From positions 21,638,001 through 21,702,000 of the forward strand of contig CM075987.1 of NCBI GenBank assembly GCA_038087875.1: 64,000 nt of DNA. Reading direction: 5' to 3'. Shown here one piece after another: positions 12,817 through 62,336 of this stretch (within the stretch, counting starts at the first letter, position 1; the number at the start of each line of letters is the position of its first letter). Position numbers and translations under genes: made by a program. The stretch comes from Malacoraja senta (lineage: Eukaryota). The notes beneath the pieces were generated by a model. That model ran no database searches. It was not told where the DNA came from and saw only the letters and a program-made list of their open reading frames with translations.

Positions 12817-13892
12817 CTAGAGGAAGCATTGGGGACAGGATGAGCCTTTTTAAACCTACTCGAGTTCAGAACTGAAAAGAATGATTCAAATGAGGGGTCA
12901 GCAAAACATGGAAAATATTTTTTTCTTGGAACGTCACCATATTTGGTTACAAAATGCAAATTGCCATTATATATTGCTTCACTTCCAACCCATCAGTCTT
13001 TCAGCATCTCACTCAAGCCAGCCTTCAATCCTCTAAACTCAAATTTACGCAGCCCAACCTTATACTTTAGCTTTTCTAACATATTCTTATCTATTTTCCT
13101 GTTAAATCTACCTGTAATTTTTGCCTCAACTATTCCATCTAACGGTAAGATCCATAGTTTCATTATTTTCTTATTGATTGCGTTCTGCTAAGATTTCTGT
13201 TTAGATATACAGTATTAGTGACCTATGTCAGTTGGCAGCACAATACAGAAGCATCTTTGTAACATAGTTTTAAAAATCTGGAGCTCTCTGCATCTAAAAA
13301 CTCTACAAGTATCCGAGGTTAGATAAAGTACTTGAGGCCGAGACCAATAGAATTTGTGGGTAGATACATCAAGAAACCTGGAGCCAAGATGTGAAAATTG
13401 AGTTGAGATAAAGACCACACAAGGTAGATCAGGTTTGAAGGGCTGAATTGTCTCTTCTGCGTGCTAGATGGGCTGATTGGACCTTACTGCCCATAATTAC
13501 CTTGGTCACTCTTGATTACTTCCTGTTGAATCATTTCGTTTCTGAAACCACATAAACCTTGAGCCACTCAATCTTGTTCTGCCATCCAACCACGTCTTGG
13601 CCAATCTGCACCTTAACTTCATCCAACTTTCGTGGTTCCTTACCCATTTAATATCCTTGTCCAACAAGAATCAATTTCAGTTTTTGAAATTATCATCTCA
13701 CTGGCAGTCATAAAAACTTTTCAGGATGGTTAATAAAATTTTTTTTATAAAATGCCTTTTATGATCATGGGACATTACAAAATTCTTTATAGATAAATAA
13801 ACATTTTAAGTGTTATTGCTTTGTAATATAGGAAATTGGTAGACAATTTGGACAGAGCAAAGCAACAGCATTCCAGATCTTCTCTACCCTAA

Positions 13893-14427
13893 TGTGAAAG
13901 TTAGTTTCTTAAAAAAGCAGATAGCAACAACCGTTGAAGGTAGACCATGGCAATCTTTAATTAAATCGTCAGACGGAAGTGGCGAGATACAATGAGCACA
14001 AACGTTGCTCAGTGCTTCTCGGGCTCCCACTCACAGAACAAAGGCGAGTTAGCACAATTATACATTTTTCTTATCAGTAAAACACTCCTACCTAGTCTAA
14101 ATATGGCATGACTGAAAGATTCTGTAGCCTTTCACAATATAGGAAAGCTGGGTCCAAATCGAGCTCCTCCAATGACAAGTTATTACTTATCTCTGGAGCG
14201 TCAGCTATTTTTTAAATCTTGGCTTCTTTATGGCCTTGAAGAAGAACATGTTATTACTGCAGGCTGCCATCTTAATGTCTTTATTGAAAAGACAATCTGT
14301 CCTCCATATTGTGTTCCATGTAATTTACAAAGTCATTCAGACTTGGCACCGAGCCATTCTTTGTTCTACTAGTCCATGCTTTTGTAGAAGAACGACTCCA
14401 TTTTAGATTTGACTATTAGCTCTTTCA
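13893..14427 (-). repeat. 3' LTR of the ERV-like element
   Basis: 535 bp, near-identical to 19581-20126; preceded on the minus strand by the polypurine tract AAAAAGGAGAGAA (14428-14440). Confidence 0.95.
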
Positions 14428-14632
14428 TTCTCTCCTTTTTATCAAACGTGATAACATTCACAGTCCTTGATAGGTACACACAAAGGTCGCAGGTATTAGA
14501 GCAATGATTAGCTGAATGATAGAGCCATAATGTATCACAGTACCCCAAAGTCCACCAAACCAAAGGTATGGCTACCAGTTCAATAGTACCCCAAAGTCCA
14601 TCAAACCAATTGTATGGCAACCAGTTCTCACT

Positions 14633-15354
14633 CTCTTCATTGACAACCATCCTGATGAAGCTTGTTTAGGGTCGATGGATCAGGTGCCACCTGTAGGCGG
14701 TGTAATCCTTTCAGCCGATATTGGGGTTGTGCCATAAAGTTCGCACCTGTCTGAGGGTGTTGTCAGTCTCTTCGTAGATTGTTGCACAGGTGAGGTGCTC
14801 CCCCCCTCTCGTCCTGTGGTGGGGTTCATCACCTTGTAGTATCCTAGCGTATCCGTGGGTTTGGGCAACTTCTCCTAGTAGATTTGGGTGGACTGCTTCC
14901 ACATCACCACGTAGAAGCCAAAGACAAAGCTAGCGTAGATTGCAGTCTGTGTTGATGTAGAAGGTGCCATTGAAATTGATGTCGTTGAACTCAAATCCGA
15001 CAGTAAGGCCAGGCTCAGAGTTGGCGGTCTGCAGTAACTCCCTGCCCTTGTTGTGCACTACCCAGTTAGTATTGATCTGCATCGTCCCCTTTGGAACTTC
15101 CTCAGGTCCGTCTCACTGATGGCGCTGTTCTCAGGGCACATGTCATAGATATCTGGGATGCTGTTGTCAAAGTCCTTGCAGGTGTCTCCTCTGCTGTCAC
15201 CATCGGCATCGATCTGGTTAGGGTTGGGAACAAAACAGCAATTGTCCTTCTCATCAGAAACGCCATCATTGCCATCCACATCAATGTCCTGATTGTCTTC
15301 ACACTGATTAACCACCAGGTCTGAGTCATTGTCTTCCTGGATAGGGTTATAGAG
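14633..15354 (-). pseudogene. Intronless, degenerate thrombospondin (THBS2-like) fragment: type-3 Ca-binding repeats plus C-terminal L-lectin domain, inside the ERV
   Basis: Translates (with frameshifts) [114 protein letters not shown]. Collinear with THBS1/2 across several exons with no introns. Confidence 0.92.
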
Positions 15355-15359
15355 GTCCG

Positions 15360-15510
15360 TCTTTTTCAAAATGTTCAGCTTCTCTCTCTCTAGGCCCTTG
15401 GTCATACGATAGAGCTCAAAATGCTTCAAGATTGTTGATCAAATGTGGTTGTCTTTCCGAAGTTGTGACCAAAGGCTTTGCACTTCCTCCTGATCTGTAA
15501 AGATGTTCTT
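15360..15510 (-). pseudogene. Short degenerate fragment resembling the CRACR2A/CRACR2B/RAB44 coiled-coil region, inside the ERV
   Basis: [31 protein letters not shown]...[10 protein letters not shown] compared with recalled CRACR2A [22 protein letters not shown]...EKNELECALKRK. Confidence 0.55.
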
Positions 15511-15512
15511 TC

Positions 15513-16465
15513 TTCTGCATGGATCAGCTGTACATGGCACTGCTGGTAGCGATCAATCAGAAACACCTCGTTACCTCCTGGGTGGGGGCAAGGTCTTTCA
15601 CGCACCTGTTCAAGCTGCTCTTTTATGTGTTTCTTAAGTCCGTCAACTCCCCTGTAACAGCACAGTAACCCTTATACTGACATCGATACACGGTGGGGAA
15701 ATTTTCCCTTTCCAAGTTTGACTTTGGTTTCCGGCCACGTTTTTGTCCAGATTGTTTCTTCACATCCTTAATATTGCACTTCTTAACTGGTAACTTACTC
15801 TTCTTCTTCCAAATGGTTGAAAAGACTCATCTGAAGAACCATTCTTAACTTTTATTTCTCTGTCATCTTCACTTGATAAATACCTTTCAGAAAGATCACT
15901 GGACTCCAATCCATCCATAACATAATTTCTTATAGAACAAGTTGCTTCATTGCAGTTAACTGTTTTTTTAATGGTTGAGTTGCATCTTGTACCTGAACCT
16001 TTTCCCAAGAGCACTCTGTATATTCAGGATATGAGCGCAAGAACATATCCTTCTTCAATGGGGATTCCGAGTTGTCCACACACACCGACCGTAAAGTGGT
16101 TCCACTGTATGTACAAGGCTGAAAGTCTGTTAACACTGGGACAGGTTGATGCTTCGCAACATTATCACCCTCACCATTTTCAGTCACTGTTCTATTCCAA
16201 GGTGAAAAGGTTATTGAACCATCCAGAACTTCCTCCACCGAGTCCTTATTTCTACTGTATGGGCACTGTCAGCCATGATCATATTGGAATGGCGGATGAT
16301 ATTGGATCATATTGGATGATCAGCCATGATCATATTGAATGGCGGTGCAGGCTTGAAGGGCCGAATGGCCTACTCCTGCACCTATTTTCTATGTTTCTAT
16401 GTCCCTCATTCAAAACAACGCTGCGACTTGAATGCATGTCCAGGATGTAACTGTGGCCCTCTGTT
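15513..16465 (-). pseudogene. Intronless degenerate ZNF276 mid-region fragment (acidic region plus first C2H2 fingers), inside the ERV
   Basis: SSDLSERYLSSEDD...SSDESFQPF, ERENFPTVYRCQYKG, YRGVDGLKKHIKEQLEQVRERPCPHPGGNEVFLIDRYQQCHVQLIH match recalled ZNF276 (ELPTIYKCPYQGCTAVYRGADGMKKHIKEHHEEVRERPCPHPGCNKVFMIDRYLQRHVKLIH). Interrupted by a CR1 3' tail at ~16247-16402. Confidence 0.9.
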
Positions 16466-16825
16466 ATCAGAGTTCTGAACAGTGCTTCCAATTGCTAGTA
16501 TTCTGCCTGATGCACCTCTACCCCATTGCATACATTGGACTTTGTCTCTGGAACTGGTGTGCTATAATGCTCAGAACTATATTCTCCACACTAACCTTTA
16601 TCTGAAGAAGGGTTTCGGCCCGAAACGTTGCCTATTTCCATCGCTCCATAGATGCTGCTGCACCCGCTGAGTTTCTCCAGCATTCTTGTCTACCTTTCCT
16701 TTGCTCTACCTTTTTTAGGTGAGCCTGAATTGATTACAATTAATCATGTTAATCCTTTGTGTCTTGCTGACATTGAAAAAGGGTGCAAGATTCTTTAGAC
16801 TCATCATTTAGCTGTTGAATAACTA

Positions 16826-17023
16826 TTAACTGGGTTCCTGCTTAATTAATGTTTCCAAACTTAGCTCACTTGATTCAATTTCAATACGTTTGTTTTTATC
16901 TGTATTCTGGGTCAAGGGATGAACCATGGACATATGAACATTCAAATTGTGAGCCTTCTCGAACCGCTTCTCACATTGGTCACAAGCAAATCCAAGTTTA
17001 GCTTCCGTCTTGTGCTTGGTCAG
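16826..17023 (-). pseudogene. ZNF276 C-terminal fragment (last zinc finger to stop codon), inside the ERV
   Basis: Open 66 codons: LTKHKTEAKLGFACDQCEKRFEKAHNLNVHMSMVHPLTQ...IKQEPS*, versus recalled ZNF276 MTKHKAETELDFACDQCGRRFEKAHNLNVHMSMVHPLTQ...VKPEPT. Confidence 0.92.
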
Positions 17024-17066
17024 TGTTATAAATGTAAGGACAGTTGTCAGCCTTATTCAGGGCGTC
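17016..17066 (-). pseudogene. 5' piece of the thrombospondin fragment (DALNKADNCPYIYNTDQ)
   Basis: TSP type-3 repeat matching recalled THBS2 DVFNERDNCPYVYNTDQ, which lies just upstream of where the main fragment resumes. Confidence 0.8.
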
Positions 17067-17189
17067 TTGGTGCAGCGGGTGTTTCCCCAAGTCCAGCTCA
17101 TCTGGGCCAACCTCAGGATAAAAAGTAGGGCCAATAGCCCCATTGTCCTTTCTTGGTTCTCCTCCATTTATAGTCAATCGTATCAGATG

Positions 17190-17492
17190 TCTTCAATGGG
17201 AGTAATCTTCAATCTTCACGGCAATTGGTGTCGTAGTAACACCTGGTACAGTCCCCTCCAACATGGTCCCGATTTTGTCCGATCCCAGTAGTATGGACTG
17301 TATCTGTATTCAACTGGCAGTGGCGTCTGCGTTTTCAACCTCTGTGAATACAAGACTGACAAGGTTGTGCTTAATTGCTGTGCGTATGCAATTAATTCAT
17401 TGCTGTGGGCCTGTAGGTCAAAACTAACTTCCACACTCTCTAGTGTCCTAGTCATTCCCTCCACTAATCCAGAATTCTACGGGTAGTGGGGG
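17190..17492 (-). pseudogene. Retroviral integrase C-terminal remnant
   Basis: PHYP*NSGLVEGMTRTL (cf. YHPQSSGxVERMNRTL) and PCWRGLYQVLL...AVKIE (GPY/F module), internally deleted. Confidence 0.8.
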
Positions 17493-18599
17493 ATGAGAGA
17501 TCACTCTTTAACTACCTATAAGGCTGACCCTTTAAAAATAGATCATTATATTAAAAAAAAACAATTTAAAAAATATTCCCAATTGTTCCAATCTATCTCC
17601 CCAAATTTACAATTTCAAATTAACAGATTTTGTTCTGAGATAAAGGCATCTCCAATCTCCTCTAACACATCTACCTGAATGTCACGTGGCCATTGTGGAA
17701 TTCAGGTCTCTGTTTGAACTCAATTCAAAAGGTAAGAAATAAGGAAAAGAAAAAAATAATAAACCTAAAGTTAAGAGAAAACAAAGAATCAACAATTAAT
17801 TTCCATAGATTACAAGCTCATTCAATGACTTCCTATTTCATCTGACATGGAGCATTTCATCAAAAGGGGTATATATATAAATATAGCCTGTAACTTTATG
17901 TCAACTATCCCGATAGGCTTTGGGAGAAATAAAAAAAAACATAGCTAAATTCTAAACACAGTAAAATTAAGCTGCCAGTATCCTGTTATCATAGCCTTGA
18001 AAAGAATACTGAGCTTCTGTAGTCAGATAAGAGACAGAACTTGGATGAGTGACAACTCAAAAGAACACGGAGAACTATAAGAGCCAGAACTTCCTTGAAT
18101 ACTTTTGAAAGCTTTTCGGTTTTAACAAATACTAATCTTCGAACATTAAAATAAAACGAATACAAATAAAAACCAGGCAAAATATACATCAATTAAACAA
18201 ATTTAATCCGAGCGGAGTTAGCAAAAGTGGAGTAGCCCCCTCGTTTCCAAAAACCATGCAAAGCATTAGAGACGTCTCTCACTATATTAATTTTTTTTTT
18301 CCTCCCTTATCTGACAAAAGCCGTTCTGTTTAAAAGGGAATTGTTTCTATGGGAACCAATTTGCAGAATTGATGCAGAATTAGCAAGCTAGGAAATTCCC
18401 CAGGCAGATTTTGTGAACTCGGACTGGGAGGTTTGCAAAAGTTGTCTTCTTGGTTGGAGTGAGAATTTAAAATGAACAAAGGGAGTAGTTCAATGTAATG
18501 GTGGGCGTGCTAATGTTCAAAACGGGAGTGGTCTGAGCTGTGATTGGACAGTGATCCAGATTGTGTTTGGCCACCTCCCCCTTCTTCTATAGACAGAGT

Positions 18600-18966
18600 C
18601 GCCATTGCCAGACATAGGGTCTCGAGAGGTTCGAGAGGACCTAGAGAAGACGTACCGGTACCGGCTTATCAGCGGGCTCCGAACTCTTATCAGCGATTTC
18701 TTTCTCTGCCTTAGCCCTTATCTCCTATTCCTCTGCCCACTGAAATTCCATCTGAAGTACTTTCCATTCTTTTAATAGTTCTGTCTTTGTACACAATTCA
18801 ATTCCTCTTTTACAAGCATAATTCATCCAACCACCATCTCGTGTCTCCACCATATGCCTCCTACTGGTCAAGACACATTACTCAAACGTTTGGTCAATTT
18901 ATAATTCAATATAACACATGTGTTGTACAGCTGTCTTTTCATCACATTTATCCAAATTATTTCCAT
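18600..18966 (-). pseudogene. Possible gag matrix remnant
   Basis: With a frameshift reads M(G)NNLDKCDEKTAVQHMC...LTKRLSNVS*PVGGIW...ELLKEWK; position after the leader fits gag. Confidence 0.45.
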
Positions 18967-19558
18967 GTTTATCCAATCACCAAATCACATCTTAGTACAC
19001 AACTTAGTATACAAATTGTAACTAAACTTTTTTTCAGCCTGCTAAGCCCAATCCTTTATTTGTAACAAACCTTTGCAGTCTGTAAAGTCCAATCCTGCCT
19101 ACTCTCTCTGGTAGCAAATTCACAAGTCTTTTCAAAACACTGTCTCTTCAAGACACATTAACTTCTTAATACACATCATTTCAAGACACCCAGTCTTTTC
19201 AATACACAATTAGTGACAAAAACGTTGTAGTCCGTCGTGTCCAGTCCTTTAATTGTGACAAAACCTCTATGGTCTGCCGTGCCCAATCCTTTACTCATTT
19301 CCAATACACAAGCCAATCATTTACTAATTTCCAATACACAAGCCAATCCTTTACACAAGTGGTCTTACCTTCGCTCTCTGCTTCAAAGGATCTTGTCTGG
19401 AACCAGGCCAACCTCAGACTGAAGGACCTTAGTTTTTCACCGAGAGCTTCTTCGGGAGGCCAGACTGCAAAGGGTCCGACTAGAGGTCAATTTTCTCCCC
19501 TTCAGATCCCGGTCAACTGCACCCTCTTACTCAGTCATCTGTTGCTGGTTCCAGCTAC

Positions 19559-19578
19559 ATCCCTGCCGACTACAGCCA
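19559..19578 (-). promoter_or_regulatory. Primer binding site, tRNA-Ser-like
   Basis: TGGCTGTAGTCGGCAGGGAT begins 2 nt after the 5' LTR; near-complement of the vertebrate tRNA-Ser 3' end (ATCCTGCCGACTACGCCA) with small insertions. Confidence 0.8.
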
Positions 19579-19580
19579 AA

Positions 19581-20126
19581 TGTGAAAGTTTGTTTCTTAA
19601 AAAGCAGATAGCAACAACCGTTGAAGGTAGACCTGGCAATCTTTAATTAAATCGTCAGACGTAAGTGGCGAGATACAATGAGCGCAAACGTTGCTCAGTG
19701 CTTCTCGGGCTCCCACTCACAGAACAAAGGCGAGTTAGCACAATTATATATTTTTCTTATCAGTAAAACACTCCTACCAAGTCTAAATATGGCATGACTG
19801 AAAGATTCTGTAGCCTTTCACAATATAGGAAAGCTGGGTCCAAATCGAGCTCCTCCAATGACAAGTTATTACTTATCTCTGGAGCGTCAGCTATTTTTTA
19901 AATCTTGGCTTCTTTATGGCCTTGAAGAAGAACATGTTATTACTGCAGGCTGCCATCTTAATGTCTTTATTGAAAAGACAATCTGTACTCCATATTGTGT
20001 TCCATATAATTTACAAAGTCATTCAGACTTGGCACCGAGCCATTCTTTGTTCTACTAGTCCATGCTTTTGTCGAAGAACGACTCCATTTTAGATTTGACT
20101 ATTAGATTTGACTATTAGCTCTTTCA
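19581..20126 (-). repeat. 5' LTR of the ERV-like element
   Basis: By eye differs from the 3' LTR by about 8 substitutions, two 1-nt indels and a 13-bp duplication. Confidence 0.95.
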
Positions 20127-20213
20127 CTAAGACATTGCCATCCTGACATCGCCATCCTGAATCATCGCTCTGCCTTCCTTCCCCTCCTTTCCAATTTCGT
20201 ACACAAAACTCAC

Positions 20214-41040: not shown

Positions 41041-41263
41041 TAAGAAAGAACTGCAGATGCTGGTTTAAATCGAAGGTAGACACAAAATGCTGGAGTAACT
41101 CAGCAGAACAGGCAGCATCTCTGGAGAGATGGAATGGGTGACGTTTCGGGTTGAAACCCTTCTTCAGTCTGAAGAAGGGTCTCGACCCGAAATGTCACTC
41201 GTTCCTTCTCTCCAGAGATGTTGCCTGTCTTGCTGAATTACTCCAGCATTTTGTGTCTACCTT
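41041..41263. repeat. Palindromic Penelope-terminal-repeat-derived element
   Basis: Two inverted ~95-bp arms centred on CTTCTTCAG-T-CTGAAGAAG. Related copies at ~270-390, 10670-10800, 11440-11610, 16600-16695, 21090-21265, 30460-30570, 31100-31280 and 61570-62270. Confidence 0.75.
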
Positions 41264-41300
41264 TGTTCTTATCCCATTTCTTTATTTCTTTTCTGAACAG

Positions 41301-59800: not shown

Positions 59801-62336
59801 CAAAACGATGTGCACTTGTATTTAAAAAAATAAATTTTTACAAATTGCGCTTAATGTCTGTCTGAATTTTAGAATTGAAATAAAATTATTAGCATATTTT
59901 GTTCAAAATGCACAATGTATATTGTTGTTTTGAAACAATAATTAAAAAATATATCCATATTATTTTGGTTGTTTGATGTAATCTATGTGCATCATTAGTT
60001 CCAGGTATTTGTCCATCTTCAATTTTCTGCCATTTTTTGGCCAAGCTTTATCTTTCTAGGCATCAAGCTGTTTAATTCTATTCATAAACTTACTGCCCTT
60101 TCCATGTCTGAAGATGCTCCATGAAACCTACGTCATTGCTTCCTTCCATCTTCATGGTGCATTGCATCAGGAAGGCTGGAAGTACTGTCAAGTATACCTA
60201 TCATCCTGGCCATTCCTTTTTTCTCTGTACTTTCTGGAGAAGGTACAGGAACTTGAAAATTTAGATATCCAGACTTAAAGTTTAAGTCACCTGCCCTAAA
60301 GGTTTCCTTCTGCGGCTGTGTCAAATTTAGTTGGCTGATGCCTGGCACCTTAGGGCATTTAACTATATTACGGATGCTGTATAAATATAGATTTATATGC
60401 ACGCCCTAATGGAAATGCAGCCTGACCAGGCAGTATCACCGTATTGCTTGTTTTTGTTTAAGAACAACAGAAACAGTTGAACATGAACACTTCCTTCTAT
60501 TCAGTCCATTTATAAACTCATCTAATCAAACTGATATATTTGTGCTCCAAGTATTGTTCCCCAATTTTCCTACCAAAGTGCCCTACATCACATTTACACA
60601 GTTTATATAGCAACTGTCACCACCTTGCTCAATTGCTTAATCTGTGTCTATATCCTGATGGTTCACTTTCTAACCATAGTCTGCATCAAAGCCAAGTTGG
60701 ATAAACTGCTGACGGCCAAGAACTGGTCCCTCTAAAAATATTTTGAAAGGAACTTGATTCTGATTCCCACATTCTCGTGAAACTTAGAGGGGGCCTTCTT
60801 TCCCGCGCTCCTTTTAAATTGACCAGTTCCACTGTCACATCTAAAACAAAATTAAGTGTGTAAATTAATAATTGAAAGTCGTCTGGCCTAGCGTCACCGA
60901 AATGCCGGATTTCGGATTAACTGAGTTTAATGTGATGTTTAAAACATTAGCAATTTTACATTCTCTACAAAAAAAAACCGAGGTGTTGTTTCTATGGACG
61001 CGCGTTTGACGCTGCTTTGCCGTCGTTTCATCAGCGGAGAATTTAAGTCGTCACGATCAAGGCAACTGAGTAAACCAGCCAGACAGTTTTGATTGTTAAT
61101 ACTGGAGAATCAAAATTCTAACATATTACCAGACAGTTGTTGCAGAGCCCGCTGATCCTTTAACGTCAGGTAACCGTATTAACAAAAGTCGCGCAATCGA
61201 TTTCACGTAAGAAGACTGGTGTTTATCCAGGTGTAGGAGCGGATCCTCGGGTCATCCCATTCCCCATCACCGGCAACCACGAGTTAAGAGCGTAACCCAA
61301 ATGTTTCATTGGCAAGACCAGGGTGATGAAAATGTGCAGCATTTTCCCCTCAAAGTGGTTCACAAGAATAATTGATGTTTAAGAAGGAACTGCAGATGCT
61401 GGAAAATTTTGTCTACAAGAATAATTGATGTGGTTTTCTGATGCAGATTTTCGATTCGAAATGTCGATAATTCGTTCCAACGCTGATGATGCCCAACCTG
61501 CAGAGTGCCTCCAGTAGTAAAATGGTCGGAGAGAGAACTTCTTCAGAGAATGCTTCTAGTGGATGCTTGAAGAAGGGTCCCGACTCGAAACGTCACATAT
61601 CCACGTTCTCCAGAGATGCTGCCTGACAGCTGTTACTCCAACACATGGCGTCCTTTAATGTAAACCAACATCTGCAGTTCCTTGTTTCTACTTTTCGTAG
61701 ATCGTTGCGCAAGAATAATTGTTGACATTACCATCAATGCCCAGAAACCGAAAAATAAATAAATATCAACGTCATTTAAGTTGTAATTAATGATTTAATT
61801 TATGATCAAAAAACAGCACTGACAAGTCATCTTCATAAAGATAGACACAAAAAGCTGGAGTAACTCAGCGGGTAGGCAGCATCTCTGGAGAGAAGGAATG
61901 GGTGACGTTTCGGATCGAGACCCTTCTTCAAGCGTCCTGGAAGCAGACACAAAATGCTGGAGTAACTCAGCGGATCAGGCAACATCTCTGGAGGGAAGGA
62001 AAAGGGTGACGTTTCGGGTCGATTCCTTCTCTCCAGAGATGGTGCCTGACCCGCTGAGTTGCTCCAGCATTTTGTGTCTACCTTCGATTTAAACCAGCAT
62101 CTGCAGTTCTTTCCTACACATCCACTGGAAGCATTATCTTTGAATAAGTTCTCTCTCCGACTATTTTACTACTGGAGGCACTCAGCGGGAAAACGTCGTC
62201 CATTCCTTCTCTCCAGAGATACTGCCTGCCCCGCTGAGTTACTCCAGCTTTTTGTGACTATCTTCCTTGCTTTGATATGGGTTTGATTTGGACACATTGG
62301 GGCGTCACTTGCGTCGGTTACACTTGTATCGGGCGG

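Follow-up and report, generated by a model that had tools for sequence, protein, structure and literature searches.

v-sis, v-sea and v-mpl are env–host fusions of transducing retroviruses. v-mpl itself is described as an open, active fusion which uses the host's transmembrane part (PMC5374145), LTR-mediated retroposition has been reported from many animals, multi-parent cases included (PMC5131818), and in the amphibian endogenous retroviruses (ERVs) reported to have captured OGFr the cargo lies in pol, most carriers have an intact env and some frames are intact and expressed (10.1101/2021.11.23.469661). Here we describe a family of Malacoraja senta proviruses, one copy of which lies in the window (the whole 64,000-nucleotide stretch of DNA that was analysed), in which pieces of the host THBS2, ZNF276 and Bicaudal-D mRNAs occupy the interior of env; these were probably captured serially by template switching and then amplified in trans as dead cargo. 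We found no description of this element in the literature, though it might be listed in subscription journals or in bioRxiv supplements, the ERV tables of 10.1101/2021.11.23.469661 among them.

Anatomy of the provirus

A 6.2-kb defective class I endogenous retrovirus occupies positions 13893-20126 on the minus strand, and the target-site duplication CTAA flanks it on both sides (13889-13892 and 20127-20130). Its features, in the order in which the element reads, are:

19581..20126, minus strand: 5' LTR, paired with the 3' LTR
19559..19578, minus strand: primer-binding site (PBS), from its position adjoining the 5' LTR; we take it to be tRNA-Ser-like
about 17170..17476, minus strand: integrase C-terminal remnant (its relative L091 matches rve, RNase_H and MLVIN_C)
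about 17090..17167, minus strand: env signal-peptide remnant, aligning to the env starts of relatives L096 and L097, out of frame with the THBS2 piece
17020..17066, minus strand: short first THBS2 piece (about residues 811-826), weak on its own (E 6e-4 to 3e-3), matching the large piece in gene, order and strand
16460..17022, minus strand: ZNF276 3' end, stop and 3' UTR (here residues 567-631; fuller copies start at 518), interrupted by an inserted repeat at about 16600-16696
15515..16467, minus strand: spliced middle part of ZNF276 (here residues ~240-518; fuller copies start at ~105), interrupted by an inserted repeat at about 16270-16402
15355..15514, minus strand: family-wide stretch of ~160 nt between ZNF276 and THBS2, without a match in the non-family loci examined
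14640..15354, minus strand: intronless THBS2 fragment (residues about 843-1130 of 1175), with shared losses, frameshifts and stops
14893..14916, minus strand: FYVVMWKQ motif of THBS2 origin, in a frame different from the anchor's
14458..14637, minus strand: env remnant with a Trp-rich membrane-proximal stretch, a hydrophobic anchor and the env stop codon (14460-14458), from identity to env-bearing ERVs
14536..14627, minus strand: 46-bp tandem duplication of env sequence (14536-14581/14582-14627), 40 of 46 positions identical
14428..14440, minus strand: polypurine tract (PPT), from its sequence, adjoining the 3' LTR
13893..14427, minus strand: 3' LTR (TG...CA), with 8 differences from the 5' LTR in 533 columns

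Most of gag-pol is deleted, the integrase end at about 17437-17200 being left over, and reverse transcriptase (RT) is absent from the element; the sole RT match among the copies (in L157) was rejected as part of the family, as it sits in a nested, unrelated LTR element. Searches for tRNA or Rfam matches returned none. An own-genome search with the integrase end led to intact-looking relatives with RT, RNase H, integrase, MLVIN_C and TLV_coat frames: L097 and L104 have a gamma-type env (matching PF00429 and showing CX6CC) and L091 an MLV-type integrase end (MLVIN_C), and the element's own env and integrase remnants align to relatives with these features. With its LTR pair, target-site duplication, PBS and PPT, the element is a defective class I (gamma/epsilon-like) ERV. 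The relatives L091-L099 and L104 belong to further class I ERV families of this genome, whose pol and env frames are long and open (up to 596 and 437 residues); some of these families are helper candidates.

In the window copy the LTRs are 1.5% apart, and the THBS block departs by 4.4% from the commonest letters in the family. Seven other LTR pairs are 4.5-6.1% apart, so the window copy either moved late or had its LTRs homogenised or converted. Elsewhere in the window, inverted repeats of ~170 bp at 1257-1423 and 2676-2841 (92-97% complementary, ~1.25 kb apart) are a possible non-autonomous DNA transposon, and SINE-like copies lie head-to-head in near-perfect hairpins at 41045-41291 and 61945-62079.

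THBS2 cargo between the two ends of env

From 15354 to 14640 the final type 3 repeats of THBS2 and the greater part of its lectin-like module are spread over several frames, and the Pfam matches on the minus strand (TSP_3, E 2e-6; TSP_C, E 3e-19) bear out the thrombospondin signature that an earlier, sequence-only reading had seen here. The best named match of the fragment is THBS2 (84% to Callorhinchus), and PDB entries 2rhp/1yo8 rank above THBS1 and COMP. That reading took the C-terminal domain to be present, but the module is cut: the TSP_C match ends near position 158 of the 198 in the Pfam model, the final ~45 residues of the protein are missing, and Cys1172 lies beyond the captured part. 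Nor do the type 3 repeats keep their Ca-binding Asp, as 33 residues are lost in 41 of 42 copies (the remaining copy does not cover the site) and 7 of 30 invariant Asp are changed. The fragment crosses the exon ends of a THBS1-like paralogue without introns, those of THBS2 being assumed alike, and has element sequence on both sides and no poly(A). In the host protein the segments matching the two THBS2 pieces almost adjoin (811-826, and 843 on), so a single THBS2 fragment probably filled the env gap first; it is now interrupted by spliced pieces of ZNF276 and, in other copies, also by one of Bicaudal-D.

A processed THBS2 pseudogene of the L1/CR1 type inside one provirus, or an assembly artefact, is scarcely credible as the origin of this structure: the genome is rich in LINE and SINE insertions, some of them inside copies, but the THBS2 piece also lacks an mRNA 3' end, the identical junction recurs on many contigs in 55 distinct stretches (among 110 loci), contigs of two other organisms cover the stretch fully (all 30 bins), and two Leucoraja erinacea gene models have a matching context. 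The family thus numbers at least 55 distinct copies in the genome, a count which refutes the artefact outright. Both gene models (XP_055486697.1 and XP_055497229.1, ‘thrombospondin-2-like’) are copies of the element and not host genes, sharing its upstream context, the 33-residue loss and the shifted reading.

The env signal-peptide remnant lies directly behind the integrase end and is followed by the short THBS2 piece; its alignments to L096 and L097, in DNA and in protein, have scores attained by none of 2000 shuffles. The sequence-only reading had overlooked this remnant, the second, short THBS2 piece and the upstream ZNF276 cargo. At the other end, the env tail (about 14637-14449) shares 73-87% DNA identity with the env ends of seven ERVs (L092-L096, L099 and L104), and L099 terminates env at the homologous stop. 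When the natural one-unit junction was compared with 1.84 billion representatives, 57 matches were found: four fit the tail half and are env C-termini (by Pfam or sequence), none covers both halves of the junction, and the seven inspected are THBS or env, never both. The anchor just before the PPT is therefore retroviral env, as had been proposed. The stop-free frame 14665-14372 on the minus strand reads TSFIRMVVNEESENWLPYNWFDGLWGT; the THBS2/env 3' junction is in frame and env keeps its own stop. THBS does run in frame into env at this point, but just about the last 10 THBS2 residues stand in the open frame, with stops and frameshifts upstream, and most copies have just 5-10 THBS2 residues between the last break and the env junction. 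The env anchor, the in-frame 3' join and the signal-peptide remnant 5' of the cargo together make the layout signal peptide/THBS2/anchor real. The 5' junction, from the signal peptide to the first THBS2 piece, is in frame in 1 of 22 scored copies, through private indels (34 loci entered, 33 matched, 11 of these without an anchor).

The 46-bp tandem duplication was correctly placed from the letters; the best other period in the range 40-51 reaches at most 45%. It puts the anchor out of frame. One unit is carried by 4/4 env relatives and two by 30/30 copies of a biased sample, chosen for likeness to the window, and by 35/42 in a wider set; the 55 junctions divide into 38 with two-unit spacing, 8 with one-unit spacing and 9 not scorable. 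In one-unit copies the final THBS2 codons enter the anchor in frame, which speaks for the layout that had been reconstructed by removing one unit, but upstream of the junction the seven one-unit copies in the table of breaks have 3-6 frameshifts and 2-6 stops. Three diagnostic positions are G,A,G in three env relatives, T,A,A in unit 1 (27/27) and mostly A,T,G in unit 2; G,A,G is absent from all nine one-unit copies, among which six different mixtures are found. Repeat collapse is reported as a known habit of reverse transcriptase (PMC3187697), and the one-unit copies are best read as later collapses of the repeat, not as the ancestral state. This reading follows the letters at the diagnostic positions and not the clade test, in which the one-unit copies form no clade in the free tree and p-AU is 0.074. 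The two units differ at three core positions in most copies, which, on small numbers, makes the frame-breaking duplication old.

The FYVVMWKQ motif, put forward earlier as an intact CD47-engaging peptide, is present at 14916-14893, but its frame is separate from that of the anchor and it is shared with both other host THBS paralogues seen. Of 42 copies, 16 have it intact, against a median of 18 across 157 windows of eight residues. Inherited and not specially conserved, and reported to be buried with peptide effects that are CD47-independent (PMC4029904), the motif makes a weak argument for CD47.

Shared breaks and change among the copies

An own-genome search with the THBS block gave 44 matches from the 40 that were scored of 258 candidates, and another with a 50-residue piece gave 84. 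Breaks were tabulated against Mobula THBS2 from 81 loci, of which 79 matched and 64 had one unbroken block, leaving 42 copies after duplicates were collapsed. Frameshifts near residues 972, 1027 and 1060 are each found in 41/42 copies, a stop at 1107 in 38/42 and another at 1122 in 32/42. Every one of the 42 copies has 6-12 frameshifts plus stops, with a longest unbroken THBS2 run of 41-142 residues, and the single frame from signal peptide through THBS to membrane anchor that was to be sought across copies is open in none of them from the env start into the host part. The window copy had been called dead through its own stops and frameshifts: broken it is, but the duplication and most of the breaks are family-wide and not private decay. 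As all examined copies are broken, mostly at identical sites, passive cargo is likelier than a working surface protein. Between-copy difference has a median of 7.5% on a star-like tree (terminal 1.34 vs. internal 0.165), and cargo is freely deleted or interrupted from copy to copy. A more divergent, locally multiplied sub-lineage (L032, L053 and L166, on C385 and similar small contigs) is without the ZNF276 part and a few shared breaks and keeps the others. Three loci considered as host genes (C2:18.5 Mb, C8:29.9 Mb and C5:58.2 Mb) were rejected and are family copies.

Change among the copies is neutral and purifying selection is not seen there: pN/pS is 0.70 in the THBS2 frame against a neutral expectation of 0.67 from the observed mutation spectrum, and 0.85 in the ZNF276 cargo against 0.78 expected. 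Before amplification, of 182 columns in which five fish THBS2 do not vary, 25 (about 14%) had come to have another commonest residue in the family; these include 2/7 Trp besides the Asp already mentioned, and 0/4 scored Cys. The five fish THBS2 differ from Mobula at just 8-16 of 206. Host THBS2, at C2:108.10-108.12 Mb (L115-L117), is represented by its first three coding exons only, the third ending at a 200-N gap, and its 3' exons were not found in own-genome searches and 230 kb of neighbouring DNA; with these exons absent from the assembly, the silent rate before amplification is only roughly bounded. A host-like contig from run X1, intronless and with stretches missing from the copies, probably represents host mRNA. 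Of 272 letters compared, 26 differ between it and the window; 10 of these differences are found in the window alone, and no fewer than 9 of the remaining 16 alter a residue. The resulting rough pre-amplification ratio, at least about 0.3, or about 0.5 allowing for silent drift of the host, is compatible with neutrality, with no sign of strong constraint, and is too weak to argue against a short selected phase. An AlphaFold model of host THBS2 was set aside (mean pLDDT 43.7).

It is very unlikely that the copies have a role in the host as RNA or DNA, having been kept or spread by LTR-driven transcripts or small RNAs acting on THBS2 or ZNF276. Such a role could draw on 19 polyA reads of one RNA run which map to the stretch, and on the LTR-driven transcription reported for such retrocopies (PMC5131818), but the reads are very few, fall in 16/30 bins and possibly come from host mRNA or env relatives, and both the free loss of cargo and the neutral change speak against it.

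The sequence-only reading had proposed that an ancestral version displayed the thrombospondin domain on virions or cells. For a working display, the shared breaks, the truncated module, the 5' junction off frame in 21/22 copies, the changed invariant residues and the lack of selection among copies all tell against the proposal. A narrower version, that a transducing virus once displayed a membrane-tethered THBS2 fragment, selected for adhesion or immune modulation, and broke after germ-line entry and before the copying burst, is improbable without being negligible: what earns a brief functional phase this minor share is that both env ends, the signal-peptide remnant and the anchor with its stop, are neatly kept. 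The in-frame 3' junction, the near contiguity of the THBS2 pieces, the unchanged Cys and the precedent of v-mpl as an env–host fusion (PMC5374145) fit such a phase as well, but the last ~45 residues with the final Cys are gone, the duplication is old by the differences between its units (again on small numbers), the X1 contig gives no hint of strong constraint, FYVVMWKQ is neither specially kept nor, as described in PMC4029904, exposed or dependent on CD47, and the load of residue changes is heavy.

Probable order of capture and comparison with known systems

The ZNF276 cargo has 92-100% DNA identity to host exons in the own genome (C2:152.64-152.66 Mb), joined without introns, and its closest named proteins are from skates. 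The piece nearer the N-terminus lies downstream of the one with the 3' end, and just past the exon start at residue 518 the two have a few bases in common. This circular permutation, with 3' end and UTR before the middle part (15515-17022 in the window; also L069 and L167), might come from a circular intermediate or from duplication with losses. The ~160 nt at 15355-15514 are possibly a further captured gene. A Bicaudal-D fragment (L149:4746-5130; PF09730, E 1.5e-10) is present in most copies and deleted in that of the window. The open 50-residue piece also trails the first THBS2 piece in most copies; own-genome searches with it and with six follow-up stretches found family copies only, and the lead from an Atlas search (best 0.85, recognition below threshold) was rejected. 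The order in fuller copies is signal peptide, short THBS2 piece, Bicaudal-D, the extra piece, ZNF276 3' end and UTR, ZNF276 middle part, the ~160 bases and, last, the large piece of THBS2. A comparison of the ZNF276 cargo with the host gene shows differences at 13 of 250 silent sites and at 8 of 956 non-silent ones, and the few non-silent differences point to late capture; we infer that ZNF276 entered shortly before the burst and THBS2 well before it.

Under serial capture, host mRNAs would have been co-packaged and taken up one by one through template switches in reverse transcription. THBS2 would have come first, a single piece replacing the env ectodomain. Its decay would have followed, with ~14% of invariant residues changed, the frame shifted three times, 33 residues lost and 46 bp duplicated. 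Shortly before the copying burst, ZNF276 and the remaining pieces would have entered THBS2; in that burst the non-coding genome, with intact LTRs, PBS and PPT, was probably multiplied in the germ line by the enzymes of intact relatives, and some copies would afterwards have dropped a repeat unit or some of their cargo. At the 3' end, the in-frame junction could be either a one-in-three accident or the trace of a short-lived state, and the out-of-frame 5' junction is hardly informative on the state at capture, because at least three later frameshifts lie in the body. A counterpoint is the neatness of the junctions: in an env of ~1.3 kb, the 5' one follows closely on the signal peptide, and the 3' one, which is in frame, immediately precedes the membrane-proximal stretch. 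Such neatness is unlikely by chance; by analogy with transducing viruses, such junctions may be the outcome of selection.

As a fossil of serial host-mRNA capture in cartilaginous fish, with at least three genes and dozens of copies, the family would be well resolved, its order of events readable from divergence. It is also a warning for annotation, as such copies crowd out real THBS2 and ZNF276 in searches. Should an ancient skate retrovirus have swapped its entire env ectodomain for the adhesive end of THBS2, with the env signal peptide and anchor retained, and shown it on virions or infected cells, which we consider unlikely, this would be the first case of an env fused to a matrix protein, and cartilaginous fish would have yielded their first transducing-virus fossil of such a type. 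An older skate relative with a selected open frame would mean that a retrovirus had replaced its entry protein by a host matrix domain, and would bear on viral gene piracy and the spread of defective ERVs.

As a protein, the cargo resembles the thrombospondin signature domain (2rhp, 1yo8) in its type 3 repeats followed by the lectin-like module, with THBS2 the nearest, but it has no EGF repeats and only a partial type 3 wire, with the internal loss and the missing end. With LTR-mediated retroposition as described in PMC5131818 the family shares lost introns, cargo flanked by the element, no poly(A) and several parents; relative to the cases described there, what sets it apart is a class I ERV from a cartilaginous fish as carrier, a chimera that was itself multiplied into dozens of copies, and a first cargo placed between the env signal peptide and anchor. 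v-mpl is likewise host cDNA fused into env, using the env N-terminus in a defective, helper-dependent genome (PMC5374145); compared with that account, both env ends are retained here, the cargo is from an extracellular-matrix protein and no copy examined has an open fusion. The nearest anamniote case among the accounts consulted is the OGFr capture in frog ERVs (10.1101/2021.11.23.469661), also an intronless host gene in multi-copy elements with gamma-type env; set beside that description, the present family has its env replaced, carries three or more genes and has all of their frames broken.
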